64,000 nt of DNA from Candidatus Latescibacterota bacterium (GTDB lineage Bacteria > Latescibacterota > UBA2968), in contig OZ244960.1 of NCBI GenBank assembly GCA_965222605.1, positions 4,896,001 through 4,960,000 on the forward strand, written 5' to 3'. The translations under genes and the position numbers were made by a program. How positions within the stretch are numbered: the first letter of the stretch is position 1; each line of letters opens with the position of its first letter. Below are positions 235 through 26,427 of the stretch, piece after piece. A model generated the notes under the pieces. It did no database searches. It saw only the letters and a program-made list of their open reading frames with translations, and was not told the origin of the DNA.

Positions 235-276
235 AAGTATTTCTCCGGAAAAGGTGGGATGTGGGATGAAGTTCTT

Positions 277-1176: not shown

Positions 1177-1182
1177 GACTGG

Positions 1183-1210
1183 GTACGGGCGGGTTTGAAA
1201 CCCGCCCCTC
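1183..1210. repeat. REP-like palindrome
   Basis: GTAC-GGGCGGGTTT-G-AAACCCGCCC: 10-bp perfect inverted repeat, intergenic. Confidence 0.55.
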
Positions 1211-1227
1211 CTATTTTTCGAAACGGA

Positions 1228-1641: not shown

Positions 1642-1649
1642 ATTTTGGT

Positions 1650-4223: not shown

Positions 4224-4330
4224 GACCGTGTCTCCTTTTGGTTTTGTTCATTATGGATATCTTCGCTATACGAAATTACCTAATTGTTTTAAAAATTTCA
4301 AGTGTGTATATCGGCTATATGAGCTATCAA

Positions 4331-4358
4331 TTGACATTATGTTTTTTTTACTTATCTT
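4331..4358 (+). promoter_or_regulatory. Putative sigma70 promoter
   Basis: TTGACA-N16-TATCTT upstream of the ORF at 4405. Confidence 0.45.
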
Positions 4359-4404
4359 TTTCGTCCAAATTTTTGAAGGGTTTAAACCAATATTAGTACG
4401 AGGT

Positions 4405-4605
4405 ATGGCAATGGCAGAGGCGGGAAGCACCTGGTTGACGTCTAAGGAGATCGCGGATCGGTTGAGTAGTCGAAAAGCGAGAGAAGTGCAGGAAGATTTG
4501 CTCTATGGACGCCGAACGCGGCGTGAGATATTGGATCTGGTGATGGAAGCTGTGGGCTGCAATGAATATTCGGCAGAAGATTTTTTGCGTGAAATTGTGA
4601 AGTGA
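4405..4605 (+). CDS. Small hypothetical protein (~65 aa, helical)
   Basis: GAGG RBS; MAMAEAGSTWLTSKEIADRL...; the track's upstream extension is probably non-coding. Confidence 0.6.
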   Translation: MAMAEAGSTWLTSKEIADRLSSRKAREVQEDLLYGRRTRREILDLVMEAVGCNEYSAEDFLREIVK

Positions 4606-4690
4606 GTAAAGCTGACCGCTATTTGTGTTTGCCGCGTATCGAATCGTCAATACGCGGCACGATATTTTTTGACCTGTAGGGTACAACGCC

Positions 4691-6379
4691 ATGTCTGAGA
4701 TTTTTCAAGCGGTGGAAAACTGCGCCAGCAGTTCATCTGATTATCTGGTCATTGGCAGTGGCATTGCGGGCCTTTCTTTTGCGCTTAAAGCGGCAGAGAC
4801 GGGGTCTGTCACTTTGATTACTAAAAAAGAGTTTCAAGAATCCAATACCAATTACGCACAGGGCGGTATTGCTTCTGTTTTGCATCCAGACGATTCGTTT
4901 GAGCTTCACAGGGAAGATACGATTCAGGCTGGCGCGGGTTTGTGCCGCGAAAATGTGGTAGATATGGTGGTGCGGGCTGGTCCCGATATGGTCAAGTCAC
5001 TCATCGCATGGGGGGCTGAGTTTACGCGAGAGAGCGAGCGGCGTACAACTGAGTCAGCCGTTCAAAATCTCGCACTCGGGCGCGAGGGCGGGCATTCAAA
5101 GAATCGCATTGTGTATGCCGCCGATCTGACCGGGCGAGAGATTGAGCGGGCGTTGTCCGAAGCGGCGATAGCCCATCCCAATATCGCGTTGTACGAGTAT
5201 CACATGGCGATTGATCTGATCACGGAACACCATGTGTATGGTTCGAAAATTTCAACGCCGGGGAAGATTCAGTGTTGGGGTGTTTACGCATTGGATGCCG
5301 TGCATGGACAGGTGAAGACTTTTTTGGCAAAATTTACGCTGCTGTGTAGCGGCGGGTGTGGTCAGATTTATTTGCATTCGACCAATCCGGCTATTGCAAC
5401 GGGCGATGGTATTGCCATGGCATATCGCGCGGGTGCAAGTGTGGGCAATTTGGAGTTTATGCAGTTTCATCCCACGACGCTTTATCACCGAGATGCCGAT
5501 TCATTTTTGATTTCTGAAGCAGTGCGCGGGCATGGTGGCATTCTGGTGGATCGAGCGGGGCGGGCGTTTATGGTCGATTATCACGAGATGGGGCCGCTTG
5601 CACCTCGAGATGTGGTTGCGCGGGCGATTGATAGCGAGTTAAAAAAGAGCGGTGATCCCTGTGTGTTTCTCGATATCACGCATTGTCCAGGCGCAGAGCT
5701 TCAGGAGCGTTTTCCCACGATTTATGAACGGTGCTTGCAATTTGGCATTGATATAACGCAGCAGCCCATTCCAGTTGTGCCAGCCGCGCATTATATGTGC
5801 GGTGGCGTGTTCACGGATACGCAGGGGCGCACGGATATCGAAAGGCTTTACGCTTCGGGTGAGGTCGCTTGTACGGGGTTACACGGCGCGAATCGCCTGG
5901 CGAGCAATTCGCTGTTAGAAGCGCTGGTTTTTTCAGATCGCGCGTTTTCCGATATCCAGCAGCACATAGATGCGAGGCTCGATTTTCCGGATGTACCGGC
6001 CTGGCAAGACGACGATGTGTTTAATACAGAAGAATGGGTGTTGTTATCACACGACCGGCAGGAAGTACAGCGTTTGATGTGGGATTATGTGGGGATTGTG
6101 CGGTCGGATTTTCGATTGAAGCGCGCAGCCCGTCGTATTGGTGTGATTGTGCAGGAGGTCGAAGAATTTTATAAGCGCACGCAAGTTACTGAGGCACTGC
6201 TGGAGTTGCGCAATATGACGACTGTTGCCGCGCTGACTGTGCGCTGTGCATTATCCCGACGCGAAAGCCGGGGGTTGCATTACACACTCGATTGTCCTGC
6301 GCCATTCAAATCTGCAAAAGATACGGTGGTGTCCGCCTGGGAAACGTGGGGCATAGGTTTGCCGGTGATTGATGTGTGA
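4691..6379 (+). CDS. nadB: L-aspartate oxidase
   Basis: GSGIAGL FAD motif, AQGGIA, REGGHS, QFHPT, PAAHY, GLHGANRLASNSLLE. Confidence 0.95.
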   Translation: MSEIFQAVENCASSSSDYLVIGSGIAGLSFALKAAETGSVTLITKKEFQESNTNYAQGGIASVLHPDDSFELHREDTIQAGAGLCRENVVDMVVRAGPDMVKSLIAWGAEFTRESERRTTESAVQNLALGREGGHSKNRIVYAADLTGREIERALSEAAIAHPNIALYEYHMAIDLITEHHVYGSKISTPGKIQCWGVYALDAVHGQVKTFLAKFTLLCSGGCGQIYLHSTNPAIATGDGIAMAYRAGASVGNLEFMQFHPTTLYHRDADSFLISEAVRGHGGILVDRAGRAFMVDYHEMGPLAPRDVVARAIDSELKKSGDPCVFLDITHCPGAELQERFPTIYERCLQFGIDITQQPIPVVPAAHYMCGGVFTDTQGRTDIERLYASGEVACTGLHGANRLASNSLLEALVFSDRAFSDIQQHIDARLDFPDVPAWQDDDVFNTEEWVLLSHDRQEVQRLMWDYVGIVRSDFRLKRAARRIGVIVQEVEEFYKRTQVTEALLELRNMTTVAALTVRCALSRRESRGLHYTLDCPAPFKSAKDTVVSAWETWGIGLPVIDV

Positions 6380-6408
6380 TCCGCAGAATGAAGGCGAGTA
6401 ATTCGAGC

Positions 6409-6433
6409 ATGAACGCAGATGAACGCAGATGAA
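6409..6433. repeat. Short tandem repeat (ATGAACGCAG)x2.5
   Basis: Read directly, in the nadB-guaA spacer. Confidence 0.6.
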
Positions 6434-6488
6434 AAAGAGGGGCTGGGGGCTGGTTGAACTGACTGCTGACAACTTTTCAGGAGTTCTT

Positions 6489-8312
6489 ATGCGCAACGGC
6501 ATTGCTGTGATTGATTTTGGTGGACAATATGCTCACTTGATTGCGAATCGGATTCGCAGGTTGCGGGTTTATTCCGAAATTTTTCCGCCGGATGTTGATC
6601 CTGCGGCATTGTGTGGCGTGTCGGGCATGGTTTTTTCGGGTGGTCCATCCAGTGTATATGATCCCGATCCACCCGCGTTTAATCCCAAATTGCTGGATAC
6701 CGATTTGCCCGTGCTCGGCCTGTGTTATGGGCATCAGTTGTTGTGCATGCATTTGGGAGGCAAGGTTGTTGCTGGTGAGGTGAGAGAATACGGTTCTGCC
6801 AGATTGAATATTGCAGGTGGGTCAGATTTGTTTGCCGGGCTTGGAGATTCCCAGGAGGTGTGGATGAGCCACGGCGATGTGGTTGCAACTTTGCCCGAGG
6901 GTTTTGAAATTTTGGGTACGACCGAGGATTGTCCTTCTGCAGCAGTTGGCGATGTCAAACGCGGGATTTATGGCTTGCAATTTCATCCCGAGGTGGCACA
7001 CACGCCGCGTGGATTGGATATTCTCGATAATTTTTTGACGATATGCGATGCGCCTCGAACCTGGACAATGGGCAATTATGCCGAAGTGGTTATGGAAGAG
7101 ATGCGGGAGAAGGTGGGGGACCGCAATGTGTTTTTGCTCGTTTCAGGTGGGGTTGATTCTTCGGTGGCTTTTGTGCTGTTTAACAAGGCGCTGGGCGCAG
7201 ATCGGGTGTTGGGGTTGCACATTGACAATGGTTTTATGCGAAAGGGTGAGACGGCTGCGGTGGAGGTTTTTCTAAAAAAAGAGGGGTTTGACAACCTGAT
7301 GGTCAAGGATGCCAGTGACGATTTTTTGTTGGGTGTGGAAGGTCTGATCGATCCAGAAGCAAAACGCGAGGCGATTGGACAAACATTTTTAGAGGTGAAG
7401 GACGAGGTGATGGCGCACTTGCATCTGAATGCAGATCAATGGGTGTTGGGGCAGGGGACACTTTATCCCGATACCATAGAATCGGGAGGGACAGAGCACG
7501 CTGCGTTGATTAAGACGCACCACAATCGCATTGATTTGATCGATGAGTTGATTGCACAGGGCAAGGTTGTCGAGCCTTTGGCACAGTTGTACAAGGATGA
7601 GGTGCGCGAGTTGGGGGGCGAGTTGGGGTTGCCCGATCATCTGGTGTGGCGACATCCGTTTCCGGGTCCTGGTCTGGCGGTGCGCTGTTTGTGCTCAGAT
7701 GGTGAGGTGGAGGGGAGTGATATTGCAGCAGCGGAGAGGGTCGCTTCTGAGATCGCTTCTGAGGCGGGTTTGCAATTGCGTGTTTTACCCGTTAAGAGTG
7801 TGGGGGTTCAGGGTGATTTTCGCACGTACTCGCATCCCGCGATTGTTTCGGGTTTCGACCTGAATACGGCCGAGAGCAATGACGATTGGCGCGTGCTCGA
7901 AGATATGTCAACGCGGATTACCAATAGCGTGCCGGGTATTAACCGCGTGGTTTGTCTTATTGCGCCAGACGAGTTGCCCAGGTTGCGTCTCAAGCGCGCA
8001 TTTTTGACCTATCAGAGGCTCGATGTTTTGCGGGAGGCCGATGCGATTGCTATGCGGGCACTCGACCGCGCGGGTCTTATGTCTGCAGTGTCTCAGATGC
8101 CGACTGTTTTGGCACCGCTGACGACAGATGGACAGAACGAGGTTGTGATTTTGCGCCCGATTACGACCCCAGATTTTATGACTGCGCGATTTGCCGAATT
8201 GCCTCACAACCTGGTGCGCGATATAGCAGACGAGATACTGAGTCTGCCCGGTGTCGCTGCCGTGGGTTATGATGTAACCCACAAACCGCCGGGGACAGTG
8301 GAATGGGAGTGA
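6489..8312 (+). CDS. guaA: GMP synthase (glutamine-hydrolysing), long form
   Basis: DFGGQY, GLCYG, QFHPEV, SGGVDS, HPFPGPGL, KPPGTVEWE; start moved to ATG 6489 after an AGGAG RBS. Confidence 0.95.
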   Translation: MRNGIAVIDFGGQYAHLIANRIRRLRVYSEIFPPDVDPAALCGVSGMVFSGGPSSVYDPDPPAFNPKLLDTDLPVLGLCYGHQLLCMHLGGKVVAGEVREYGSARLNIAGGSDLFAGLGDSQEVWMSHGDVVATLPEGFEILGTTEDCPSAAVGDVKRGIYGLQFHPEVAHTPRGLDILDNFLTICDAPRTWTMGNYAEVVMEEMREKVGDRNVFLLVSGGVDSSVAFVLFNKALGADRVLGLHIDNGFMRKGETAAVEVFLKKEGFDNLMVKDASDDFLLGVEGLIDPEAKREAIGQTFLEVKDEVMAHLHLNADQWVLGQGTLYPDTIESGGTEHAALIKTHHNRIDLIDELIAQGKVVEPLAQLYKDEVRELGGELGLPDHLVWRHPFPGPGLAVRCLCSDGEVEGSDIAAAERVASEIASEAGLQLRVLPVKSVGVQGDFRTYSHPAIVSGFDLNTAESNDDWRVLEDMSTRITNSVPGINRVVCLIAPDELPRLRLKRAFLTYQRLDVLREADAIAMRALDRAGLMSAVSQMPTVLAPLTTDGQNEVVILRPITTPDFMTARFAELPHNLVRDIADEILSLPGVAAVGYDVTHKPPGTVEWE

Positions 8313-8434
8313 TGATGGAGGATGGAGCACTACTGCGCCAGCAGTTCATTAACAAAACGAACAAAGCCGGACAGAGTTATTTTTTTACTTTTTAGAATTG
8401 CAATGGAACAAAATGTACACCTTTCCTGTAGATA

Positions 8435-8458
8435 GTTAGCGAGCGTGGGTCTGCTAAC
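8435..8458. promoter_or_regulatory. Candidate enhancer-binding-protein site
   Basis: Inverted repeat GTTAGC-N12-GCTAAC, ~75-95 bp upstream of the sigma54 box. Confidence 0.3.
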
Positions 8459-8529
8459 GCCAATTATATATCCTTGTTTTATCGTGCCTTAGAATATTCT
8501 GAGGCACTTTTTTTTGGTTTTTTTCAAAA

Positions 8530-8546
8530 TGGGCACGGCTTTTGCA
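8530..8546 (+). promoter_or_regulatory. Sigma54 (RpoN) -24/-12 promoter
   Basis: TGGGCACGGCTTTTGCA = GG-N10-GC with CACG and TTGCA; matches the TGGCACG-N4-TTGCW consensus apart from one base. Confidence 0.7.
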
Positions 8547-8620
8547 AGATATGCTGTGTGCAAATCGCGTGAATGGGATTGAGGCGGACGAGATGTCCGC
8601 GATGCCAGAGGGTTGAAGTT

Positions 8621-9895
8621 TTGAAAAATACTACAGTTGCGTTTTATAGCCAGCATCTCATTGGCGTTGGGCACCATTTTCGCAATCGACAGATTGTCAA
8701 TGCGTTGGTTAAGACTTGCGATGTGTTTTTCATCGATGGCGGGCGCCCGATTCCCGAGGCCGATCTCGATGAACGGGTGACGCGTATTTCCCTACCGCCT
8801 CTTCGCACGGGCGCACAGGGCATTGAGTCTGTTGATAAGGAGCGCGATTTGCAGGCTGTGATGTGCGAACGTCAGGTCAGGCTTTCCGAAGCGATGGAAC
8901 AGATTCGACCGGATGTGTTTTGTGTTGAATTTTTTCCTTTTTCCCGGTGGTCGCTCAAGGGCGAAATCCTCAATACCATTGTCAGGCTCAATCAGGTCAA
9001 TCCCGACGCGAAGGTGCTGTGTTCACTGCGCGATGTTCCCACGCGGGCAAAAAGCGATGAGTTGCAACCGGCTATTGCGCCTACAGAACGGCGCGATGGG
9101 GATGCGATGCGGTTTTATTCGGTGCCTTTTGGCGGGATACATCACGAGTATTTGTCTTTTAATCGGCGGTATTACGAGGAGGTTGTGCCCGTGTTGAATC
9201 AGTATTTCGATGCGGTGCTGGTGCATGGCGATTCCCAACTATCGCGGTTGGAAGATCACTTTCCATGGGTTGCTGATATCGGGATTCCCGTGGTTTATAC
9301 GGGATTTGTTTCTGAGAAACTCGAGGATGTCTCTCGGCCTGACAGTGCGTCCGATCAGTATGTTTTGGTCAGTGCTGGCGGTGGTGCTGAGGGGCTTGCG
9401 CTTGTCGCGCCGTGTATTGAAGCGTGGAAAAAATTGGAACAGGACGATGTGCACGATGGACGCGAGATGGTGATTTTTGCAGGTGCGTTTATCGATGAAA
9501 CGCATTTTGACGCTTTGCGCGAGTTGTGCGGCGATGGTCCGTTTCGTATTGAACGCTTTACGTCCAATTTTTTGGCCTGGATGAAATACACAGATTTGTC
9601 GATTAGCCGCGCGGGCTACAATACCTGTATGAATGTACTTGAGACGCAAGTTCCAACGATTTTGGTGCCGAGTATTGCGATGGATGATCAGGAGTTTCGC
9701 GCACAGAAGTTGATGGCGTTGGGCCTCGCACGGGTGATACATCCCGACCACTTATCCGTGGCAAAGATGGCAAAATCCATTGCCGAAATGCTCGAAAGTT
9801 CTGTGCCTGAACACCATCTATCCCTGGGTGGTGCCGAGCAAACGCGAAAGTTTATAGAATTAGCGGTACAAGGTAAAAAACGAGGTGAAAGATGA
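8621..9895 (+). CDS. GT-B glycosyltransferase (COG4671-like, GT28 C-terminal domain)
   Basis: FYSQHLIGVGH, EFFPF, SLRD, LVHGD, SAGGG, SRAGYNT; probable TTG start at 8621 (track start 8573). Confidence 0.8.
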   Translation: MKNTTVAFYSQHLIGVGHHFRNRQIVNALVKTCDVFFIDGGRPIPEADLDERVTRISLPPLRTGAQGIESVDKERDLQAVMCERQVRLSEAMEQIRPDVFCVEFFPFSRWSLKGEILNTIVRLNQVNPDAKVLCSLRDVPTRAKSDELQPAIAPTERRDGDAMRFYSVPFGGIHHEYLSFNRRYYEEVVPVLNQYFDAVLVHGDSQLSRLEDHFPWVADIGIPVVYTGFVSEKLEDVSRPDSASDQYVLVSAGGGAEGLALVAPCIEAWKKLEQDDVHDGREMVIFAGAFIDETHFDALRELCGDGPFRIERFTSNFLAWMKYTDLSISRAGYNTCMNVLETQVPTILVPSIAMDDQEFRAQKLMALGLARVIHPDHLSVAKMAKSIAEMLESSVPEHHLSLGGAEQTRKFIELAVQGKKRGER

Positions 9896-11295
9896 AAATT
9901 TATGTGTCACATCCGTATCACGACCGCGAGAAAGTGATAGAGTCGAATATCGGGGCATCCCTTTCGGGTTTTAACCATGTGCAGGCGTTATCGCAGTATT
10001 GCGATGTGTATATGCCAGCGTCTGAAGCGGTGGATTATGGTCCGAATTTGCACGGTACTCGGGTTGCATTTGAGACGATTGATTCGTCTCGACAATGGTT
10101 TGAGCGGCAGGGATATGACGGTGTGCTGATGTTTGAACCCAAGGTAGATGACATAGCGTTTTTCCGCCATGTGTGTTCCGCGCCCATTGTGATTCGGCTG
10201 TCGTGCTCTTTTGGACACAATCGCGATTTTATAGACAAGGTGCTGAATTGTTATTCGCTGTTGCGGCCTTATGATGCCCTGTCACCCAAGTCGGCATATG
10301 TCGCTGACGAAATCGGCAAGCTGGTGTTTGACCGATCGTATTTGCAGGCGATTACCAATGGAGTAGATGCCGAGGTGTTCAAGCCGATGGATAAGTTACA
10401 GGCGCGAAAAGATGTCGCGGATAAGACGGGTGATCAACGCTTTTTGGAGATGCCAGTGGTGGGTTTTTGCGGGCGGTTTGAACCGAGCAAGGGCGCGTAT
10501 CCATTTTTGCGAATGGCCGATCTGAATCCCAATATGTTGTTTGCGGTGATTGGCAAGCAGTTCGCACCCGTGACCCATCCGCCCAATGTGATCTTTTTGG
10601 GTGCGCAACCCTATACGCAGATGCCGCTGTATTACAATATACTCGATGTGTTGTGCGCGCTGTCGGTGTATTCGTATGAGTCGTGTCCTTCAACTGTGCT
10701 GGAGGGGATGGCGTGTGGCCTTCCGGTTGTGGCGACAAATTTTGCGGGCGCGCCAGAGTTGTTGGGCAGTTGTGGGCGGTTGATTGAGATTGAGCGGTTT
10801 GAAGATGAGCCATTGAATGTGACGGGTTATATCGCCCCTGAGGTGATTTCAGATGCTGTGCGCGATTTGTTGAATAGCAAAACGGAGCGCTTGGAAATGG
10901 GAGAAGGTGCTCGCAAACGTTCGCTCGAATTTTCCTGGGATCATACGGCGCAGCAGCACATGGCATTGTTTGAAGATCTGCTGGCCAAACGCGATGCACC
11001 CGCCTGCCCGATTCCAATAACCGTGAATTTTACACAGAGTTGTGATGCGTCTGGTAACCCGAAAAGTGTGTCCAAAGGATTTAACTATCTGGGCAGCAGA
11101 CAAGGTCCTTTCCCACGCATCTCGTTTTTTGGGCAGGATATGTCCCTTATTGAGGGCCTGGGTCTTCATTTGATGCAACATTTACACCCAAACGAAGTCG
11201 AAGCCGCTCTGTTGGGCTTATGCGAGACGCGCGCTACAGCCTACAAAACGCTTCGCAAAATCCGACACTTCAGCGATATGCTCACGGCTCCCTGA
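9892..11295 (+). CDS. GT4 glycosyltransferase with ~95-aa C-terminal extension
   Basis: ITNGVD, GRFEPSKG, E-x7-E (ESCPSTVLE), GMACGLPVVAT, FSWD; ATGA overlap with the upstream GT. Confidence 0.85.
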   Translation: MKIYVSHPYHDREKVIESNIGASLSGFNHVQALSQYCDVYMPASEAVDYGPNLHGTRVAFETIDSSRQWFERQGYDGVLMFEPKVDDIAFFRHVCSAPIVIRLSCSFGHNRDFIDKVLNCYSLLRPYDALSPKSAYVADEIGKLVFDRSYLQAITNGVDAEVFKPMDKLQARKDVADKTGDQRFLEMPVVGFCGRFEPSKGAYPFLRMADLNPNMLFAVIGKQFAPVTHPPNVIFLGAQPYTQMPLYYNILDVLCALSVYSYESCPSTVLEGMACGLPVVATNFAGAPELLGSCGRLIEIERFEDEPLNVTGYIAPEVISDAVRDLLNSKTERLEMGEGARKRSLEFSWDHTAQQHMALFEDLLAKRDAPACPIPITVNFTQSCDASGNPKSVSKGFNYLGSRQGPFPRISFFGQDMSLIEGLGLHLMQHLHPNEVEAALLGLCETRATAYKTLRKIRHFSDMLTAP

Positions 11296-11347
11296 TCGGC
11301 AAAGGGAGACAGCTTGCGCTGAGGTAGTGAAGAAAGGAGGTGAAAAA

Positions 11348-11566
11348 ATGACTGAGCGCATTACGTCGATGCCAGCACAAGTTTCTGTGACCTGTGTTCA
11401 ACTTCCCGGTCGAGAAATCGAACTGGCGCGTGGTGAGATGGCGAATACATCAGGAGGGTGCATTTTACCAGGAGAAGACATGTTTGAGCATGACCCACTT
11501 GAGCCTCTTGAAGATATTATTGATGATATCTGCGATACGGTGAGTGAATGGTGGGCTTCCTGGTAG
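11348..11566 (+). CDS. Putative RiPP precursor A (double-glycine leader + 35-aa acidic core)
   Basis: AAAGGAGGTG RBS; leader ends ELARGEMANTSGG; core CILPGEDMFEHDPLEPLEDIIDDICDTVSEWWASW. Confidence 0.8.
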   Translation: MTERITSMPAQVSVTCVQLPGREIELARGEMANTSGGCILPGEDMFEHDPLEPLEDIIDDICDTVSEWWASW

Positions 11567-11677
11567 CAATCGCGCCACGATCCATAAAACGCTATTTCTG
11601 GTATTTAAGTACTGGATGAAAACTATCTTTTTTTAGTACTTGACGAGTCTTACCATTTATTACTTTTGGAGGATATC

Positions 11678-12073
11678 ATGTCCGCTATTGTATTAAATAA
11701 TCGCGTAACTTCAGATTCAGACGCTGCTTTTGCCTCTTGCACGGCACTGCCCATCCATCAAACAACGCTCAATGCTGAAGAAATGGCGGGTATTGATGGT
11801 TTGGGGAGTTGGGGCGATGCTATTGATAAGGTTGGAGATTATGTTTCGGATGTTGTTGATTCAGTAGGAGATTATGTTTCGGATGCTGCTACTACTGCTT
11901 CGATAGCTATTTTCGGTGGGGCTGTTTATGCAGACTTAGATCCTGATCCATTTGGTTTCCCATCACCACCTGATACACTGATTATTATCACTCGGGAACC
12001 ACATGTGTGCAACGGCCCGATTGTGTACACATCTTATGGGTCTTGTTTGTGTCCGATGCCAGGCCGCCCGTAG
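11678..12073 (+). CDS. Putative RiPP precursor B (homologous leader, repeat-containing core)
   Basis: GGAGG RBS; leader ends LNAEEMAGIDG and aligns without gaps to precursor A. Confidence 0.75.
   Translation: MSAIVLNNRVTSDSDAAFASCTALPIHQTTLNAEEMAGIDGLGSWGDAIDKVGDYVSDVVDSVGDYVSDAATTASIAIFGGAVYADLDPDPFGFPSPPDTLIIITREPHVCNGPIVYTSYGSCLCPMPGRP
11834..11885 (+). repeat. 19-bp direct repeat at 33-bp period inside precursor B
   Basis: GGAGATTATGTTTCGGATG at 11834-11852 and 11867-11885 (GDYVSD twice). Confidence 0.9.
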
Positions 12074-12177
12074 GTTCGCTGTGCATCAACCCGTCATTCC
12101 CGCACACGCGCACAATGTAGTCACACGTAGAAAAATGCCATTAATCTCGCAGCCCTTTTTGGAGTTGCCTGAGGCAA

Positions 12178-15100
12178 ATGCCTACGGCGTGTGCAGGAGT
12201 GACGGCAATCTATATGAGGCATGATAAAAAAATGAATCTTTCGGTTTTTTTCGCAAAAAACTCAGTTCGGTCACAACCCGCTCGTTATTCCTTTGGAGGT
12301 ATTGTTTGTCAACGGGGACAAGCGGGTGAGGCGTTTTACATTGTGCAATCTGGACGGTTGCGGGTGATCAAACAAGATGCGAATGGCAATTCGGCCACTG
12401 TGGGCTATTTGTATGCGGGCGATCATTTTGGCGAAGGGGCATTGTTGAACCGGCAGGGACATCGGGCGACGGTGCGGGCGGTTGAGGATGCGGATGTGTT
12501 GCAGGTGCCGAAGGATGAATTTTTTAAGGCTGTGAGAAAACATTCTGACCTGAAAGCCTATCTTAAGGAGCAGGTCGCCTGTATTGCGTATCGGGATTTT
12601 ACGCGATTTTTGAAAGGAGATGTTCCGAGCGAGGCGATGCGGGTGTTGTTCGCACGGTTGAAGCGCGAGGCGGTTGAGAAGGGTGTGACGGTTGTTGATC
12701 GCGGTCAGTTAGGACAGCGATTTTATTTGATTGGCAGCGGTCAGTTGGAGGCTGTGTCAGAAAATGGGGACACGGTGATTTTGAGCCAGGGTGATTATTT
12801 TGGAGATGAGAATTTATCAGGTGATAAAAGGGTGATTCGCAGTCGGTGTGATAGTGTGCTCTTTTATATAGATAAAAGCGATTTTAATAAATTAAAAGCT
12901 ATGATGCCGGGATTCGAGAAGGCGTTGGAGAGAGGCCGCATATTGCGTGGAGATCAGGCATCGAATGGGGCATTGTTGCGACAAGTGCGACAAGTACCTG
13001 AGCCACTTACTGCGCGATCTGATGAAAAACTGGCATCCAATACAACATCCAATGTGGTCAATATCAGAATAGACGGCGCAAAACCGCTTGTACCCACATT
13101 GTTGCGTTTTCCGTTTTTGAAGCAACACGATCAATCGGATTGTGGCGCGGCGTGTTTGGGCATGATTTGTAAGTATTACAAGATGCCGATTGGGTTGAAC
13201 AGGCTACGCGATATGTCCAATGTGTCGCGGTATGGCACGTCGGTGGCGGCATTGGCCGAGGCTGCGGAAACACTGGGTTTTGTCACGCGCGGCGTGCGCA
13301 CGGGGTATGAAGCCCTGATGCGAACAGACCTGCCAGCCATTCTCCACTGGGAAGGCAACCACTTTGTGGTTTTGTATCAGATTACAAAAAAGGAGGTGAA
13401 GATAGCAGATCCCGGCGTGGGTATTCGCAAGCTGTCGCGGGCAGAGTTCGAGAAGGGCTGGACAAATATGGCGCTGTTGTTGGAATACACAGATCAGGTG
13501 GCAGAGAACGAACCGTCTCGGTCTTCTTTTAAGCGGTTTTTCCCATTGATCAGACCCTATACAGGCATATTGATTGAGGTGCTATTAGCGTCTTTGGTGC
13601 TCAGTTTGTTTGGCCTGGCGTCGCCCATTTTTATGCAGACCATTGTCGATCAGGTGCTGGTGCATCACGACGCGGATTTGTTGAACTTGATGCTGGTGGG
13701 CATGATTGTTGTCGCGTTGTTCCAAATGGGTACATCGACGTTGCGCGTCTATTTAATCGGGTATGTGAGTGCGCGGTTGAGCATTGCGATGTTATCGCGT
13801 TTTTATCGGCATTTGCTGGCGCTGTCCATGCGGTTTTTTGCCCTGCGGCGCACGGGCGATTTGACCACGCGGTTTAGGGAGAATGCGACGATTCAGCGTT
13901 TGTTGACGGGTACGACGGTTTCTGCGATTCTGGATTTTATCATGCTTTTTGTCTATCTGGGTCTGATGTTTTATTACAATGCTGAACTGACGCTGATCAT
14001 GCTGATTTTTGTGCCGCTCTCTGTGGGTCTCACGCTGATTTACACGCCCATTTTGAAGTCTTTCAGCCAGCGCGCTTTTTTGGCGCGTGCCGAACAATCA
14101 TCGGTTTTAATCGATTCGCTGCACGGCATTGATGTGGTCAAAGCCGAGGCTGTGGAGCGCGCGACGCGGTGGCATTGGGAAGGTAAGTTCACAAAGGAAA
14201 TTCAGATTGGATTTCAGCGGTTAAAAATGCAGATGTTGTTTGGGGGGATCGGAAGAGTGTTCAATTTGTTGAGCAGTACGGTGATTTTGTGGTATGGTGC
14301 CTCATTAGTGATTGCGGGTGACCTGTCGGTGGGGCAGTTGATGGCGTTTAACGCGCTGATTGGCAATGTGATGGGACCGATTATGGGGTTGATTGGGATA
14401 TGGCCTCAGGTGCAAGAAGCGCGTATTGCATTGGATCGGCTGAATGATGTGTATGACACGCAGATGGAAGATGCGCGGCAACAGGGTCAGGGTTTGATCT
14501 TAAAGCATTTGGAAGGTCGGGTGGTGTTTGATGAGGTGTTTTTTAGATATGGTGTCGGTTCTGATGAACCTTATGTGTTGAATAACATAGACCTGATTCT
14601 CGAACCGGGTCAAAAAGTTGCGATTGTGGGACGCAGTGGCGCGGGCAAGACCACATTGGTAAAGCTGGTACCCCGTTTGTTTGATCCGTCAGAAGGGCGG
14701 GTGATGCTGGATGGTATGGATGTGCGAGACCTGGATCCCCATTGGTTGCGGCGGCAGGTGGGTATGGTGATGCAAGAGCCGTTTTTGTTTTCTGGCACGA
14801 TTGCAGAAAATATCGCCATTGGTCGAAAAGATGCCGACATGGATCGCATTTTGGAAGTGGCAAAACTATCGTGTGTACACGATTTTGTAAGCGATATGCC
14901 TTTGGGATATGAGACAAAGGTCGGTGAGCAGGGTGTAGGACTATCTGGTGGACAGCGACAGCGGATTGCAATTGCGCGGGCACTGTATTGCGATCCCAAA
15001 ATTTTGATTTTTGATGAGGCCACCAATGCGCTGGATACGGATTCAGAACAGGCGATGCAGGCGAATTTAGATATGTTTTTGGATGATCGCACGGCGTTGA

Positions 15101-15252
15101 TTATTGCCCATCGGTTGAGTACGGTGCGCGATGCGGATGCGATTGTGGTGCTGGATAAGGGTCATATTGTGGAGATGGGCACGCACGATGAGTTGATGGT
15201 GCAACAGGGTTTGTATTATCACCTGTGCAGTCAACAGTTGCAGGTGGTGTAA
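12178..15252 (+). CDS. Peptidase-containing ABC transporter (PCAT/HlyB type): 2 cNMP-binding domains + C39 peptidase + TMD + NBD
   Basis: GDHFGE and GDYFGD cNMP motifs; C39 triad QSDCG / NHFVV / IADP; GRSGAGKT, LSGGQ, ILIFDE; exact start uncertain (12178, 12214 or 12232). Confidence 0.92.
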   Translation: MPTACAGVTAIYMRHDKKMNLSVFFAKNSVRSQPARYSFGGIVCQRGQAGEAFYIVQSGRLRVIKQDANGNSATVGYLYAGDHFGEGALLNRQGHRATVRAVEDADVLQVPKDEFFKAVRKHSDLKAYLKEQVACIAYRDFTRFLKGDVPSEAMRVLFARLKREAVEKGVTVVDRGQLGQRFYLIGSGQLEAVSENGDTVILSQGDYFGDENLSGDKRVIRSRCDSVLFYIDKSDFNKLKAMMPGFEKALERGRILRGDQASNGALLRQVRQVPEPLTARSDEKLASNTTSNVVNIRIDGAKPLVPTLLRFPFLKQHDQSDCGAACLGMICKYYKMPIGLNRLRDMSNVSRYGTSVAALAEAAETLGFVTRGVRTGYEALMRTDLPAILHWEGNHFVVLYQITKKEVKIADPGVGIRKLSRAEFEKGWTNMALLLEYTDQVAENEPSRSSFKRFFPLIRPYTGILIEVLLASLVLSLFGLASPIFMQTIVDQVLVHHDADLLNLMLVGMIVVALFQMGTSTLRVYLIGYVSARLSIAMLSRFYRHLLALSMRFFALRRTGDLTTRFRENATIQRLLTGTTVSAILDFIMLFVYLGLMFYYNAELTLIMLIFVPLSVGLTLIYTPILKSFSQRAFLARAEQSSVLIDSLHGIDVVKAEAVERATRWHWEGKFTKEIQIGFQRLKMQMLFGGIGRVFNLLSSTVILWYGASLVIAGDLSVGQLMAFNALIGNVMGPIMGLIGIWPQVQEARIALDRLNDVYDTQMEDARQQGQGLILKHLEGRVVFDEVFFRYGVGSDEPYVLNNIDLILEPGQKVAIVGRSGAGKTTLVKLVPRLFDPSEGRVMLDGMDVRDLDPHWLRRQVGMVMQEPFLFSGTIAENIAIGRKDADMDRILEVAKLSCVHDFVSDMPLGYETKVGEQGVGLSGGQRQRIAIARALYCDPKILIFDEATNALDTDSEQAMQANLDMFLDDRTALIIAHRLSTVRDADAIVVLDKGHIVEMGTHDELMVQQGLYYHLCSQQLQVV

Positions 15253-16635
15253 ATGGCAGAATCGCTTTTGGAGACATCGGCTGAGACAGTAGTTCCCGGT
15301 ATAGTTCAGGAGCAAGATGACGCGGCAGAAGAGGTGCATGCGTTTATGGGGTCTTTGCGGCCCTTTTGGGGACGTGCAATGCTCTATATTGTCCTGCTGT
15401 TTGTGATCATTGCCATTACCTGGGCATGGTGGGGTGAGGTGGATATGGTGACATCAGCCCCTTTTCGACTGGTGCCTCTGGGGCAGGTGAAGACGATGCA
15501 GGCACAGCGAGGTGGTGAAATTGAGTTGATTGGTGTTAAAGAAGGGGATCATATTGAGAAAGGGCAGGTGTTATTTAAGCTCAAATCGTGGGAGACCTGG
15601 GGAGATTTGCGGGAATGGGAACAGGCAAAGATGGCTTTTCAGAAGGCGGAGTACGATCTCAAAAGGGTGTTGCCTCAAAGGGCAAAATTAAATCGAGAGA
15701 CGATAGGCGCGCTGGAACAACGCCTTTCTGTTTTGCAGCGGTTTATGGTGGCACACCAGAATGCGTTGAAAGATTATCAAAGCGATGTAGGCGATGTTGT
15801 GGGATCGAAAACCAAAGTATCTGACGCGGGATTGCAAGCGCAGATCGGTTTTCGGCAAGCTGAGATTGACCTTATGAAACAGGAATTTTTACAGCAAAAG
15901 GCGTTGTTTGAGCGCGAATTGATCAGCCGGACAGATATGAATCGCGCGCGTGTGCAGTATTTGAGTGCTCTGTCCGCACTTCCGTCGCGTATGTCAGAGA
16001 TATACAAGAATGAAATGGCGGTGCAGGATCTCAAGCGTCAAATTCTGGAAGCGCGTATTGCACACGAGCGCGAGGCATCGCAGATGCAACACGCTTATGA
16101 GATCGTACAATTGCGATTGGAACAGGCTCGCAAACGCATTGATCGTACCCTGGAAGCCGAGTCAGATCTGATTCTGGCACCTGAATCGGGCATTGTAACA
16201 CAGGTGATGGTGAATGCGATAGGACAGGTGATCAGCAAGGGGGCGCCTCTAATTACACTGGCACCGGCTTTGGCACCGATGGTTGCGGAACTGATGGTGT
16301 TGAATAAAGATGTGGGCTTGCTCAAACCCGGGCAATTGGTCAAACTGAAATACGGCGCTTATGCCTTTCAGGATTTTGGCATCAAACGCGGGTGGCTCAA
16401 ATACATCTCGCCCGATGCGATGATTGATAAAAGTATTGGACCGATATTTAAGTGTGTTGTCGAGTTGGAAGAAAATACCATGCATGTGCAAGGATACGAC
16501 AAACCGCTGATGTTCGGGATGAAGGGTACGGCAGAGATTATGACAGATCGCCAATCAGTCTTACTGATGTTGCTGAGTCCCTTGCGACAGCTTTACGAGT
16601 CGGCAAGGTACGATGTTCAAGAGGGTGCGTTGTGA
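15253..16635 (+). CDS. HlyD-family membrane fusion protein
   Basis: Single TM, VKEGDHIEKGQVL, coiled coil, APESGIV, FGMKGTAEI; starts immediately after the PCAT stop. Confidence 0.92.
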   Translation: MAESLLETSAETVVPGIVQEQDDAAEEVHAFMGSLRPFWGRAMLYIVLLFVIIAITWAWWGEVDMVTSAPFRLVPLGQVKTMQAQRGGEIELIGVKEGDHIEKGQVLFKLKSWETWGDLREWEQAKMAFQKAEYDLKRVLPQRAKLNRETIGALEQRLSVLQRFMVAHQNALKDYQSDVGDVVGSKTKVSDAGLQAQIGFRQAEIDLMKQEFLQQKALFERELISRTDMNRARVQYLSALSALPSRMSEIYKNEMAVQDLKRQILEARIAHEREASQMQHAYEIVQLRLEQARKRIDRTLEAESDLILAPESGIVTQVMVNAIGQVISKGAPLITLAPALAPMVAELMVLNKDVGLLKPGQLVKLKYGAYAFQDFGIKRGWLKYISPDAMIDKSIGPIFKCVVELEENTMHVQGYDKPLMFGMKGTAEIMTDRQSVLLMLLSPLRQLYESARYDVQEGAL

Positions 16636-17411
16636 TGTCAGAGGATGCCACACTGATTCGGGTCAATGGTATTGCAGTGTCATTGCGCCATGTCGTGCGG
16701 CAACTGGGCGTTGCTGGTAATCTGCGTTTTTTTGATGGATTTACGCGCAGGGAATTGGTCCGACAACTCGCGCTGCGCGAGGGTGTTTGCGCAACGCGTG
16801 AAGATATTCAGCGCAAGGTAGATGAATGGCGGTATCAACACCGTTTGGAGCGGGTGGAAGATACAGAGGCATGGCTTGTAAAGCGGAGTATTACGCTTCA
16901 GGATGTGACAGAAGATGCCGAGGTGAGGCAGTTGGAATATTTGCTGTCTGAGAAGATTGCCGAGGGACAGGTTGAACCCTATTTCGTGCAACACATGCTG
17001 GAGTTTGACGAGGCGGAGATTTGCTGGATTTTTCACGCGGATAAGGGTGTGATCGACGAGATTGATTTGCAGATCCGAGAAGATAGTGCAGATTTTTACG
17101 CGATGGCGCGTCGATTTTCTCAAGATGCACGCACGCGATCAGGTAGTGGTTTTTTAGGCAGGGTGCGGCGCAAGCAGTTGCCCAAGGGGATTGCTGCGCG
17201 CGTTTTTGCCGCTTCCTCAGGTGAAATTTTTGGTCCGGAAAAAGTGTCGGGCGGGTTTGCGCTGTACCTGGTGCAGCAACTCTATCCGGCAACACTGGAC
17301 GAGCGGATTGCAAAGGAGATCCGCAAACACCTGTTTAATCAGTGGTTGCAACGAGAGATGCAGCGAGCAGATATACGGTATCCGATTTGGCAGATGGAAA
17401 TAACAAAATAA
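16635..17411 (+). CDS. Parvulin/PpiC-type peptidyl-prolyl isomerase-like protein
   Basis: FYAMARRFSQD, SGFLGRV, VFAA..GEIFGP; TGATG overlap with hlyD puts the start at 16635. Confidence 0.8.
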   Translation: MSEDATLIRVNGIAVSLRHVVRQLGVAGNLRFFDGFTRRELVRQLALREGVCATREDIQRKVDEWRYQHRLERVEDTEAWLVKRSITLQDVTEDAEVRQLEYLLSEKIAEGQVEPYFVQHMLEFDEAEICWIFHADKGVIDEIDLQIREDSADFYAMARRFSQDARTRSGSGFLGRVRRKQLPKGIAARVFAASSGEIFGPEKVSGGFALYLVQQLYPATLDERIAKEIRKHLFNQWLQREMQRADIRYPIWQMEITK

Positions 17412-17453
17412 ATTCTGAAAAAAAAGTTAAAAAATCAAAAGAACAGGTCCGCA

Positions 17454-18305
17454 CTATGGCATTACGGCTTTTTCGCCCTGATATTTGCTGATCCAGCTTT
17501 TCAAAGGAACATCTCCTTCTTTTGGCGATGTGTAGCCGTGAATGCCCGAAGGAGAATGCCGGCACATTTGCTTTCGGATTGGACTCAGTTGATCCCAGAA
17601 ATTTTCCACGTTGCATTCGCCGCGCGCTTGAAGCCAGCGGTAAGCGTATCCGTAGAAGATCACCTTGCGGGGTTGCGTCCAATAATTTGCACTCGCTGAA
17701 TGCCACAACCGACGGTCAAAAATAACGGCTGAACCCCGGGGAGCGAGGACGGGTATAGAGCCCTTTACCATCTGATTGCGATTTCCGTTCGGCCACTTCA
17801 TCGTATTTTTTAACTGGCTTCCCGGAATGATGTGAAAATTGCCGCGTTCCGGTTCGCTTGTATCCGATAGAAAGTAAGCTACTTTGACCGATAAGCGCGG
17901 CCTCGGGCTTGTCTCCATTTCCTGATTCACGCGCCCGGTATCTTGATGCCAACTGAGTCCCAAACCGCGTTTGCTATCTGGTGGTTCGGGAGGCGTTACG
18001 TCCATGTGTGCCAGATAGATTTGTATATTCCATCCCAAGATCCCCCAAACTTTTGGGAATGTCGTATAGTGATCTATCAAGTCAATAAATGCACGATCTC
18101 GCCCCATAAAGTCGATTTCGTGAACCCGCTTATGTGGGTCAATTTTTTGTTTTTCGCGTTCCTCGGCATTGATGCGATCAACTGCTTTGGTCAGTTGTCT
18201 TCTTTTCGCATCGCTCAGTGCGTTTTCAATGATTAGATAACCCCGGTCCTCAAATTCGAGGCGTTCGTCTTCAGTCAGGCAATGGTTTAGCCAGCGTTTG
18301 TTCAT
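17454..18305 (-). CDS. Phytanoyl-CoA dioxygenase (PhyH) family Fe(II)/2OG dioxygenase
   Basis: FEDRGYLII, WHQD, IPGS, RLWH. Confidence 0.85.
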   Translation of the reverse strand: MNKRWLNHCLTEDERLEFEDRGYLIIENALSDAKRRQLTKAVDRINAEEREKQKIDPHKRVHEIDFMGRDRAFIDLIDHYTTFPKVWGILGWNIQIYLAHMDVTPPEPPDSKRGLGLSWHQDTGRVNQEMETSPRPRLSVKVAYFLSDTSEPERGNFHIIPGSQLKNTMKWPNGNRNQMVKGSIPVLAPRGSAVIFDRRLWHSASANYWTQPRKVIFYGYAYRWLQARGECNVENFWDQLSPIRKQMCRHSPSGIHGYTSPKEGDVPLKSWISKYQGEKAVMP

Positions 18306-18318
18306 AGCGCATCTCCTT

Positions 18319-18786
18319 TCATGAAAAGAGGTTGGCCTTCTTTTTTCGTCGATCCAGAATATAGAATTTGATAAGCCCTATCCCGCCGATCAGACTACAG
18401 GGTATCACAATGAAGCGGTACATTGAGACTTCGTCATATCGAAGCGATGCACCGGTCGCGCCTATTGTCACGACCACAAATGATATGTGAATGAGTTTTT
18501 GAGATAGGTATTTATTGACAAAGGTAGAGATTAGAATCAACGCGAGCGCCGTGTGGAAAATGACAAATCCCGCATAACCGTTTCGCACGGCGAGATCAAA
18601 ATGCCAATCATAGCGATAAAGCCATACCATGAGCACATGTGTCAGAATGATCAGCGCGACAGCACGCCACAGCGCGATCGGGTGTTGTTCTCGCAGCGTG
18701 AGCACAACCACAGTGGTCAATCCCACATATCCTGTGATCGCCAATAAAAAAGTGATGAAAATTTCCGTTGTTCCCGTTCCAACCAT
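18319..18786 (-). CDS. Hypothetical integral membrane protein (~5 TM)
   Basis: Hydrophobic segments; GGGAG RBS before ATG 18786. Confidence 0.6.
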   Translation of the reverse strand: MVGTGTTEIFITFLLAITGYVGLTTVVVLTLREQHPIALWRAVALIILTHVLMVWLYRYDWHFDLAVRNGYAGFVIFHTALALILISTFVNKYLSQKLIHISFVVVTIGATGASLRYDEVSMYRFIVIPCSLIGGIGLIKFYILDRRKKKANLFS

Positions 18787-18917
18787 CGACAGATTCTCCC
18801 TTCTCATAGCTCTGTGTCGCGTTTGATATGCAATATATCGCATGATATTCTAAGAACAAGAGCGTTTCACAGGTGCTGACATGTCTCTATTTGGTGTAGG
18901 CGATTCATTACATGCAA

Positions 18918-18948
18918 AACGGGTTACGACGTATTGCCATAACCCGTT
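18918..18948 (-). terminator. Hairpin downstream of tRNA-Thr
   Basis: AACGGGTTA-N13-TAACCCGTT flanked by A/T runs. Confidence 0.5.
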
Positions 18949-18956
18949 GTTTTTTG

Positions 18957-19032
18957 TGGAGCCGCCCAGCGGACTCGAACCGCTGACCGCCTGATTACAA
19001 ATCAGGTGCTCTACCAGCTGAGCTAGGGCGGC
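18957..19032 (-). tRNA. tRNA-Thr(TGT)
   Basis: GCCGCCCTAGCTCAGCTGGTAGAGCACCTGATTTGTAATCAGGCGGTCAGCGGTTCGAGTCCGCTGGGCGGCTCCA, 76 nt cloverleaf with encoded CCA. Confidence 0.97.
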
Positions 19033-19134
19033 TGGTCCGTCAAAGATATAAAAGCACGCGATTTTTGGCAACCTCAAAGAGGGGTTTAACTGCTATCGCA
19101 GTTGTACACTTCTTGGGGACTGGGGGCTGGTAGG

Positions 19135-20217
19135 TTAGAAAAACGATGTCGTGCGTTTTTGATCGCGTTCGTAGCGTTCAATGCCCAGTTGAATGAGGCG
19201 ATCAATCAATTCTTGATAAGAAATTCCACTGGCCTCCCACAGCTTGGGATACATACTGATCCGCGTAAAGCCGGGAATGGTATTGATTTCATTTACCACA
19301 AAGGTGCCGTCATTTTTTAGAAAGAAATCCGCGCGTGCCATGCCCTCACAGCACAAGACTTGAAATGTGTGAATGGCAAGGGTTTGCACCCGTTTTACAG
19401 CTTCTTCCGATAAATCTGCGGGGATGTGCAATACCGCGCCTTTTTCATCCAGATATTTCGCTTCATAAGAATAAAACTCGTGCTGCGGCAAGATTTCACC
19501 GGGTATTGAGACAATGGGCGTCTCATTGCCCAATACCGAACATTCAATTTCTCGACCCTCAACAAAAGCCTCGATCAGTACCTTTTTGTCGTAGCGAAAT
19601 GCTTCTTTCAACGCGGGGATTAGCGCGCTTTTGTCGTGTACTTTACTCACGCCGACCGATGAACCCAAATTTGCAGGCTTTACAAATAGGGGCAATCCCA
19701 GTTCTGAAATCACATCATCCACATCCAGATTTTCCAATTGGAACTGAAGCACTGTTCGCCACGCGGCAATGGGAATATTGGCATCGCGCAGCAGGCGTTT
19801 CATCACGTCTTTGTCCATCCCCACAGCCGAGCCGAGCACATCTGCGCCTACATAGGGGACATCGGCCAATCTCAAGAATCCCTGTACTGTGCCGTCTTCT
19901 CCCAGCGGTCCGTGCAAGACGGGAAAAACCACATCGACCGAATCGGACGCAGACTGTCCCACGAGTTCACCGCGCCCTTCTGGCATCAACGTAATCAGCG
20001 CGTTTTGGTCTGCATCAGAGAGTCCCTCTGTATTGGCTTCGGGCAATAGTTGTTCGGCTTCGTTCAAGAACCATTGACCCGATTTGTCGATTCCTATTGG
20101 CACGACTTCGTATTTGGTTTTGTCAATCGCGTCAATAATATTGCGCGCAGACTGCAATGACACTTCGTGCTCTGCCGATTTCCCACCAAATAGTATTCCA
20201 ACGCGGATTTTTTTCAT
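19135..20217 (-). CDS. ddl: D-alanine--D-alanine ligase
   Basis: FGGKSAEHEVS, LHGPLGEDG, GSSVGV, YEAKY, NEINTIPGFT. Confidence 0.95.
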   Translation of the reverse strand: MKKIRVGILFGGKSAEHEVSLQSARNIIDAIDKTKYEVVPIGIDKSGQWFLNEAEQLLPEANTEGLSDADQNALITLMPEGRGELVGQSASDSVDVVFPVLHGPLGEDGTVQGFLRLADVPYVGADVLGSAVGMDKDVMKRLLRDANIPIAAWRTVLQFQLENLDVDDVISELGLPLFVKPANLGSSVGVSKVHDKSALIPALKEAFRYDKKVLIEAFVEGREIECSVLGNETPIVSIPGEILPQHEFYSYEAKYLDEKGAVLHIPADLSEEAVKRVQTLAIHTFQVLCCEGMARADFFLKNDGTFVVNEINTIPGFTRISMYPKLWEASGISYQELIDRLIQLGIERYERDQKRTTSFF

Positions 20218-20840: not shown

Positions 20841-20859
20841 TTGTGTATCCTTTCACACT

Positions 20860-23210: not shown

Positions 23211-23226
23211 GGGGTACCCCTTTTTT

Positions 23227-24264: not shown

Positions 24265-24327
24265 AGGACGAGTTTTTGAAAAAGTGAGAATGTGTTGCAA
24301 TCGCGCGGATTGCAGTACGGCGTCATT

Positions 24328-26412: not shown

Positions 26413-26427
26413 TGACTTACCAAATCG

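Follow-up and report, generated by a model that had tools for sequence, protein, structure and literature searches.

Modules in which a long-type peptidase-containing ATP-binding cassette transporter (PCAT) is combined with an HlyD-type membrane fusion protein and a rotamase are widespread, as exemplified by the cyanobacterial bacteriocin groups I and II and by HetC, and the substrates of these modules as well as the roles of their extra domains are largely unknown. The accessible text of Wang, Fewer and Sivonen (2011; PMC3140520) describes for groups I, II, and VI a long-type PCAT with a CAP_ED domain, an HlyD protein, and a SurA-like rotamase. HetC from Nostoc PCC 7120 is, as far as the available part of the source goes (PMC10986499), a PCAT with a cyclic-nucleotide-binding domain N-terminal to its C39 peptidase, with ppGpp as ligand in vitro, an unknown substrate, and no double-glycine peptide encoded nearby. 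Here we analyze a stretch of 64,000 nucleotides (the window; contig OZ244960.1 of assembly GCA_965222605.1, positions 4,896,001 to 4,960,000 of the forward strand) from a Candidatus Latescibacterota bacterium, in which a gene for a long-type PCAT is preceded by two small open reading frames (ORFs), A and B. Our reading, to which we give a probability of roughly 0.55, is that A and B are paralogous precursors of an exported bacteriocin-like peptide family, in which an extended double-glycine-type leader of 37-42 residues would be placed on interchangeable cores.

The export module of the window has an architecture identical to that of the cyanobacterial groups I and II and, as reported for these in the accessible text, several precursors with variable cores belong to one cluster (PMC3140520). 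In contrast to those groups, the phylum is Latescibacterota, the tailoring genes encode a pair of glycosyltransferases (GTs) of the GT1-like and GT4 types, and the leader is not of the NHLP, N11P, HetP-like, or DUF37 type, though a similar leader is possible among the 150 precursors that the same text lists as 'other' (PMC3140520). Unlike in the case of HetC, of which the available part of the source gives the account above, candidate substrates are adjacent and numerous in the present system and the transporter possesses two cyclic nucleoside monophosphate (cNMP)-binding domains. The system is therewith of a known type, double-glycine precursors with a long-type PCAT cluster.

Leaders A and B can be superimposed without a gap over 33 residues, from R4 to G36/G37 in A (RITS...NTSG(G)) and from R9 to G41/L42 in B (RVTS...GIDG(L)). 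Both stretches had been quoted in an earlier note on this DNA as a shared leader with 11 identities in 33 positions; both are present in the window and the count was reproduced. If the whole proteins are compared by script, the best gapless 33-residue window has 12 identities, composition-preserving shuffles of A and B (n = 2000) reach 11 or more identities in 5 cases and 12 in none, and BLASTP of A against B gives, as a single comparison, an E value of 9e-05. By itself this pairwise signal is modest, and it is the family evidence that is decisive: the similarity of the two leaders is real because homologs of A make up 80 database clusters and homologs of B 50, and because five leader types can be aligned without gaps. 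The modest pairwise likeness is also what might suggest that A and B are not expressed genes at all and resemble each other by chance. However, the frames are open in dozens of genomes with synonymous changes, each ORF is preceded by a strong Shine-Dalgarno sequence (A by AGGAGG, 7-8 nt 5' of its ATG; B by GGAGGA, 4-5 nt 5' of its ATG), and both occupy a fixed place beside the PCAT gene, so that the non-gene reading is effectively refuted by conservation and keeps hardly any probability. A lipoprotein signal, for which a lipobox-like ...A-S-C might be taken, was dismissed on inspection, as the Cys is not preceded by a hydrophobic h-region.

Homologs of A are conserved over their full length. 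The consensus leader of the A clusters reads MTERITSMPAQxSVTCVQLPGQEIELARGEMANTSGG and is followed by an acidic core which opens with C-I-L-P-G and closes with SEWWxSW. In the B clusters, the first 42-47 residues are 70-90% identical and are then joined to at least four unrelated core types, i.e., the acidic, Cys-ended core of B itself, a core starting with WDWGDF followed by a glycine-zipper segment, CHYEEEE...PPPPS, and CLLGEVLD.... The additional leader types were encountered among neighboring ORFs of related loci. When a leader profile was run against 1.84 billion representative proteins, 61 matches were obtained, about three quarters of them small proteins with one match each at the N-terminus and the remainder repeat proteins. 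Among the matches listed, those that are not precursors are long proteins with several short matched stretches; P0131 and P0144 are BspA-type leucine-rich-repeat proteins according to Pfam (LRR_5/LRR_8), and P0150 belongs to no Pfam family. The repeat unit of these proteins (…VTSIGDxAFAGCTxL…) is similar to the B-type leader segment RVTSDSDAAFASCTAL (window 11702..11755), which could be due to chance or convergence, or could hint at a strand-turn-helix fold.

No leader model of Pfam or NCBIfam matches A, B, or any of 30 members of the B family at E values up to 1, and the few named database records are for proteins labeled as hypothetical. In the searched literature, including the available part of PMC9426513, no description of this Latescibacterota leader or cassette was found. 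Neither the model libraries nor the searched literature contain the family, in agreement with the earlier statement that the upstream elements of the leader are unlike NHLP and Nif11 leaders, and there is, in our judgment, a strong case that a new double-glycine-type leader family is exported here by the adjoining PCAT. NHLP and Nif11-type long leaders, reportedly described by Haft and colleagues in 2010 and presumably represented by the NCBIfam models TIGR03793 and TIGR03798, resemble the present ones in being long, in the double-glycine end, in the hypervariable cores, and in the many paralogs per genome. No sequence relationship between them was detected by NCBIfam at E values up to 1, and the leader described here is only about half as long.

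Conservation was counted in 201 distinct near-complete leaders, the positions being numbered as in A (37 residues). L19 (-19) and G36 (-2), the latter present in both A and B, are found in all 201 leaders, and L26 (-12) in 198, R4 in 196, S or T at position 7 in 194, C16 in 172, P20 in 168, M31 (-7) in 167 (I in 18), E30 (-8) in 166 (Q in 19), and P9 in 136 of them; position 34 (-4) is occupied by T, I, or V. With L-12, E-8, M-7, and G-2, the C-terminal half of the leader does carry the C39-type register that had been assigned to it. Together with the hydrophobic or small residue at -4 and with the vicinity of an HlyD gene and of a PCAT whose C39 domain is intact by motif, these positions constitute the likeness to the double-glycine leaders of class II bacteriocins and peptide pheromones. 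The present leaders differ from those by their length of 37-42 residues, by extra conserved blocks at -34 to -29 and -25 to -18, by a polar residue at -15, by the residues accepted at -1, and by the lack of a match to any double-glycine model of NCBIfam or Pfam. At position -1, for which Gly, Ala, or Ser is the rule in double-glycine leaders, A has G, B has L, and the family varies (G in 136, L in 52, A in 8, V in 1, and M in 1 of 201; the listings also contain T, E, K, and Q). The G-L end of B, to which attention had been drawn as non-canonical, is real and nearly invariant within the B subtype, and the B-type variants P0142 and P0143 carry GG at the aligned place, confirming the register. 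Judging from these leaders, position -1 is permissive and the G-L of B is a normal trait of the family, not an error.

For leader positions 1-21, the mean pairwise ratio of nonsynonymous to synonymous substitution rates (dN/dS) is 0.24-0.50 in all five groups. Two natural chimeras, P0065 and P0139, consist of a near-complete B-type leader (through …LNVEE) joined to the last ~14 residues of an A-type leader and an A core, and point to recombination within leaders. If the 5' flanks of the precursor genes are read through in frame (window 11327..11347 and 11660..11677, and related loci), two conserved classes appear, '…RKEVxxM' preceding A- and C-type genes and '…LEDIM' preceding B-, D-, and E-type genes; therefore, the ribosome-binding region travels with the leader. 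The chimeric leaders, the flanks common to several leader types, and the many hydrophobic glycine-zipper cores, which are likely toxic, would also fit an upstream leader region that has no partner and merely keeps the precursor soluble or inactive in the producer, or paralogs that were homogenized by recombination of leader modules. We regard this as improbable. Although the leaders of A and B share no more than about 33% identity, R4, L19, L26, and G36 are invariant or nearly so over at least seven leader types, for which recent homogenization is insufficient; moreover, the dN/dS values stand at substantial dS, and a generic solubility function would not fix single residues at a set spacing.

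The family can also be followed across the phylum: other peptides do carry the leader, and in a set of 168 Latescibacterota genomes the profile matches 40, which belong to two families of one order. Leader-positive are the genome of the window and all 20 other genomes of the same genus, members of two more genera in that family, and 17 of the 22 genomes of the second family; in the remaining 12 Latescibacterota families no genome matches the leader profile. All 11 genome loci obtained from the A alignment come from metagenome-assembled genomes (MAGs) of Candidatus Latescibacterota, and a few NCBI records of these peptides are labeled Gemmatimonadetes. Latescibacterota is so far the only phylum in which the family is seen. 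The N-terminal region of the PCAT is found in 40 of the 168 genomes as well, and the PCAT is present in 38 of the 40 leader-positive genomes, the two misses being MAGs that are 82% and 89% complete. The two glycosyltransferases are less widely distributed, GT4 occurring in 24 and the GT1-like enzyme in 26 of the 168 genomes. In one genus, g10, the leader is found in 14 and the PCAT in all 15 genomes, and either glycosyltransferase in none (0/15); GT4 was not found in five g10 genomes (95-100% complete) that were searched individually. Upstream of the precursors, loci without the glycosyltransferases still contain remains of the GT4 3' end, either decayed or truncated, and thus the glycosyltransferases were lost secondarily.

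This loss permits a comparison of the two upstream blocks of the leader, which the earlier note had taken jointly (RxTS and CxxLP) for the docking site of a modifying enzyme. In g10, the N-terminal half of the leader has dN/dS values of 0.24 (A-type) and 0.32 (C-type), as compared to 0.30 and 0.50 in a genus with glycosyltransferases, and is still under purifying selection despite the loss. The g10 leaders also keep CxxLPG[R/Q]E. Among distinct gapless leaders, 52 from loci with and 19 from loci without the glycosyltransferases, L19 (52/52 with, 19/19 without), L26 (50/52, 19/19), G36 (52/52, 19/19), and P20 (44/52, 19/19) are retained, whereas R4 (52/52, 15/19), S or T at position 7 (51/52, 13/19), and above all T, V, or I at position 6 (50/52, 3/19) are relaxed, and a Cys at +1 (25/52, 0/19) and a residue other than Gly at -1 (15/52, 0/19) are restricted to loci with the glycosyltransferases. 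Since the RxTS block is fixed in the presence of the glycosyltransferase pair and loosened without it, we tentatively propose that it might be related to the glycosyltransferases, although we would not bet on it. CxxL(P) travels with the long-type PCAT, HlyD, and rotamase whatever the tailoring enzymes are, and for this reason we are somewhat inclined to assign it to recognition by the export module. Of the earlier docking proposal, then, the part concerning CxxLP is not supported, and only RxTS follows the glycosyltransferase pair, so that the proposed mechanism is at best half right.

Two further PCAT-HlyD-rotamase modules in the genome of the window, whose PCATs share 55-57% identity with that of the window and which lack the glycosyltransferase pair, extend this comparison. 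The first of them encodes a pair of M16 peptidases, confirmed by Pfam, and a small Cys-rich protein; similar ORFs in the second were read by eye only. M16 peptidases are also among the tailoring genes of the cyanobacterial group II in the accessible text (PMC3140520). Each of the two modules possesses one very acidic precursor, of 192 and 209 residues, respectively. Their leaders (MPENI[S/L]EHT[T/L]SIAGLTCKPL...) have no RxTS, but share T-C-x-x-L, E-M, and G-G with A and B at the same spacing; in the place of P20 they have S or A, although a rotamase is present. When the 6.3-Mb genome was translated in six frames (121,402 ORFs of 30 residues or more, 9.2 million residues), the pattern C-x2-L-x10-EM-x4-G[GL] occurred in exactly four ORFs, namely A, B, and the two M16-module precursors. 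A two-sequence hidden Markov model and the full motif recover only A and B from the same genome; the M16-module leaders escaped these scans as well as the leader profile used on the 168 genomes, and were reached only through the PCAT paralogs.

These data bear on whether the whole upstream region, RxTS together with CxxLP, serves as a docking site for the modifying enzymes GT1-like and GT4, in the manner of a recognition sequence of RiPPs (peptides that are made by ribosomes and modified after translation) and independently of the transporter. All but one of the 11 loci L002-L012 have the two glycosyltransferase genes directly upstream of the precursor genes, this arrangement is repeated in three cassettes of one genome and recurs in paralogous cassettes, the GT4 remnants show that the state with glycosyltransferases is ancestral, and GT4 has an extra conserved C-terminal domain. 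Nevertheless, g10 maintains the leader, its CxxLPG[R/Q]E, and its low dN/dS with glycosyltransferases in none of its genomes, the C-x2-L spacing is also present in the precursors of the two M16-bearing modules, and Pfam detected no RiPP recognition element (RRE) or PqqD-like domain among the cassette proteins, so that docking by the whole region appears unlikely. Another candidate partner is the PpiC-type rotamase, which, if cytoplasmic, might bind the upstream region as a dedicated chaperone or isomerase acting on the prolines of S-x-P and L-P and keep the precursors export-competent. Its gene comes 3' of the HlyD gene in the window and in 32 loci (33 sources altogether), among them the genus without glycosyltransferases, divergent paralogs, and an outgroup at 27.6% identity, and it is present in the two extra modules; P9 and P20 are conserved in most leaders, and in the accessible text on cyanobacterial bacteriocins a SurA-like rotamase is the constant partner of long-type PCATs, with its role left unexplained (PMC3140520). 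However, L19, R4, and G-2 surpass the prolines in conservation, and the M16-module leaders do without P20 despite their rotamase. We therefore hold a rotamase site to be quite doubtful. A complex prediction of rotamase and leader, run with two alignments and without controls, gave an ipSAE (interaction prediction score from aligned errors) of 0.01 in both runs, which speaks neither for nor against such a site.

Our preferred reading, an extended double-glycine-type leader on interchangeable cores, can be put as a leader of three stacked signals. Residues -12 to -1 would form the canonical C39 recognition segment (L-12, E-8, M/I-7, G-2), and the long-type PCAT next door would cut at the double-glycine-type site during export by PCAT and HlyD; with -1 permissive (G, L, A, rarely others), G-L might be a normal site for this PCAT clade. 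The block from -25 to -18, [F/V]-x-x-C-x-x-L-P, may represent an element for the export module, most likely one that caps the helix bound by the transporter or continues it N-terminally or, alternatively, a contact with the cNMP domains or with the cassette rotamase. The block from -34 to -29, R-h-[T/V/I]-[S/T]-x-P, is a candidate for the place at which the GT1-like/GT4 pair recognizes or glycosylates the precursor prior to export. What is directly observed is the leader family, its cassette, and the patterns of co-occurrence, and export, the position of cleavage, and all binding assignments are inferred.

Several points weigh against this reading. C16 is not universal, as C-type leaders carry G, V, A, or P at this position, and L19 may be of greater importance than the Cys as such. 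The contrast between loci with and without glycosyltransferases amounts to about one old loss (g10) and one recent loss linked to an insertion sequence (IS; g8), i.e., to an n of about 1 and to a pattern, not a statistic, and the g10 sequences are more diverged (dS of ~1.1-1.3 versus 0.26-0.40 in g1). The linkage of glycosyltransferases to the cassette persists down to ~50% identity, so that in the ancestral system the entire N-terminal part of the leader may still have served the glycosyltransferases. The four-ORF count was obtained with a strict pattern derived from A and B, and the other two precursors were already known before counting. Finally, position -15 is polar in this family (E, Q, T). 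In classical double-glycine leaders this position is hydrophobic, and it is therefore not obvious that the amphipathic helix simply runs on to -19.

The genes of the cassette are listed in Table 1. Their order in the window, i.e., GT1-like, GT4, A, B, PCAT, HlyD, and PpiC-type rotamase, is shared by all of the loci L002-L012 except the rearranged L011 (10 of 11). One genome carries three cassettes at separate chromosomal sites (L002, L008, L010), two of which are without the upstream neighbors seen in the window, so that the cassette is a repeated unit. The order is also kept in paralogous cassettes (~50-68% identity for the glycosyltransferases and ~64-66% for the PCAT), which encode still other leader types. 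In many cassettes, Rce1/CPBP-like and DUF3267 membrane proteins are encoded between the precursors and the PCAT, and some cores are of the glycine-zipper type; such a combination would suit bacteriocin-like peptides with immunity genes.

Table 1. Positions of the precursors and cassette genes in the window, and of the precursor loci of two further modules of the same genome
Feature	Position	Strand	Description
GT1-like glycosyltransferase	8573..9895	+	Pfam Glyco_tran_28_C 1.3e-13; NCBIfam weak MurG/MGT
GT4-family glycosyltransferase	9892..11295	+	Pfam Glycos_transf_1 2.4e-18
Precursor A	11348..11566	+	72 aa; leader 11348..11458 (37 aa, GG end); acidic core 11459..11563, first residue Cys
Precursor B	11678..12073	+	131 aa; leader 11678..11803 (42 aa, G-L end); core 11804..12070
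Long-type PCAT	12178..15252	+	two cNMP-binding domains, C39 peptidase, transmembrane domain, ATPase
HlyD-family membrane fusion protein	15253..16635	+	Pfam HlyD_3, HlyD_D23; NCBIfam type_I_hlyD 7.1e-60
PpiC-type (parvulin) rotamase	16635..17411	+	258 aa; Pfam Rotamase 5.4e-12; no obvious signal peptide
Module 2 precursor locus	G000:C1:416570-417145	-	= L071:11571-12146
Module 3 precursor locus	G000:C1 ~757623-758250	-	= L072 up to 14250

In the PCAT, Pfam recognizes cNMP_binding (in two stretches), Peptidase_C39 (2.8e-40), ABC_membrane, and ABC_tran, and the NCBIfam model bacteriocin_ABC is matched with 533.6 bits at a cut-off of 523.85. Its translation displays the motifs DCG, NHFVV, and ADP, which we take to provide the catalytic Cys, His, and Asp. 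As orthologs align only from residue 16-19 on, the true start is probably Met19 at position 12232. For the GT1-like protein, known models match only the GT28_C/MGT-like C-terminal half, and a comparison with PDB sequences gave no match; its gene lies 5' of that for GT4 in 10 of the 11 loci L002-L012 and also in divergent paralogous cassettes (~50% identity). The solved sequences nearest to GT4 are GT4 enzymes of the MshA, GlgM, and BshA type (E values of 5e-08 and weaker). GT4 ends in a C-terminal extension of ~100 residues (10984..11292), which is conserved in paralogs down to 47% identity. A model of this extension has a mean predicted local distance difference test (pLDDT) of 66.6 and is confident only at residues ~53-101, where it shows a three-helix bundle; Foldseek against PDB yields no match at an E value of 0.001 or better, a wide VIA-align search only generic three-helix matches (best Z 7.0), a profile search against PDB sequences nothing at E values up to 10, and the protein atlas no usable match, which leaves an RRE-like identity of the extension neither favored nor disfavored. 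Built on a 15-sequence alignment, an AlphaFold2 model of the whole GT4 had a mean pLDDT of 34.3 and could not be used. Many cassettes have an extra Glycos_transf_1 domain, encoded either ahead of the GT1-like gene or in one frame with it (L008:6527-7252; frames of 842-906 residues), so that these cassettes encode three glycosyltransferase domains and that of the window two.

For glycocins of the sublancin, glycocin F, and pallidocin types, too, the accessible accounts place a glycosyltransferase and a C39 ABC transporter in one locus with a double-glycine leader peptide. Glycocin transferases are S/O-glycosyltransferases of the GT2 family (GT-A fold) that act on the core. In contrast, the enzymes of the present cassette match GT28_C/MGT-like and GT4 models (GT-B type) and not GT2. 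The cassette products, which come from an uncultivated phylum, are candidates for glycosylated ribosomal peptides of a new type. One might go further and view the leader as a modular address label, in which R-h-T-S-x-P recruits the pair of GT-B-fold glycosyltransferases and C-x-x-L-P is a new recognition element for long-type PCATs or their rotamase. We consider this view in its entirety rather unlikely; if true, it would define a new class of leader-guided glycosylated ribosomal peptides unrelated to the GT2-based glycocins and provide a first handle on why long-type PCATs carry extra parts. Candidate substrates of such a transporter are obvious, numerous, and naturally varied in this system, and cassettes with the glycosyltransferase pair, with M16 peptidases, or with neither offer informative comparisons. 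Two questions thereby become directly testable, namely how the leader residues are divided between those that the transporter module reads and those that tailoring enzymes read, and whether the C39 peptidase accepts Leu at -1.

Some minor features of the cores and loci may be mentioned. Many cores close with Cys-rich tails (…CTCSCN, …CCCCCCCDD, …SCCCKK, …KCKCDCACCN; L010:10689-11054, L047 at ~10326 and 12189, L044:10781-11047, P0176, and P0183), which suggests metal binding or further modification. In loci of the g10 type (L044:6140-8335 and 8218-8661, both on the minus strand; likewise L043, L050, and L053-L056), the precursors are divergently flanked by genes for a TMEM260-like membrane protein of the O-mannosyltransferase type and for a small protein, which looks GtrA-like by eye from its sequence only; this flank may be mere synteny within one genus. 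Transposase genes of the IS type are located in or beside some cassettes (L008:12056-13245; L045:7654-9285 and 10715-11895), and in L045 one of them abuts a GT4 remnant. Within positions 1..30000 of the window, the GC skew is strongly positive (0.12-0.31) up to ~17 kb, with the main ORFs mostly on the plus strand and a long ORF at 1650..4223 on the minus strand, and between 18 and 24 kb, with most of the listed ORFs on the minus strand, it turns negative (-0.04 to -0.14).

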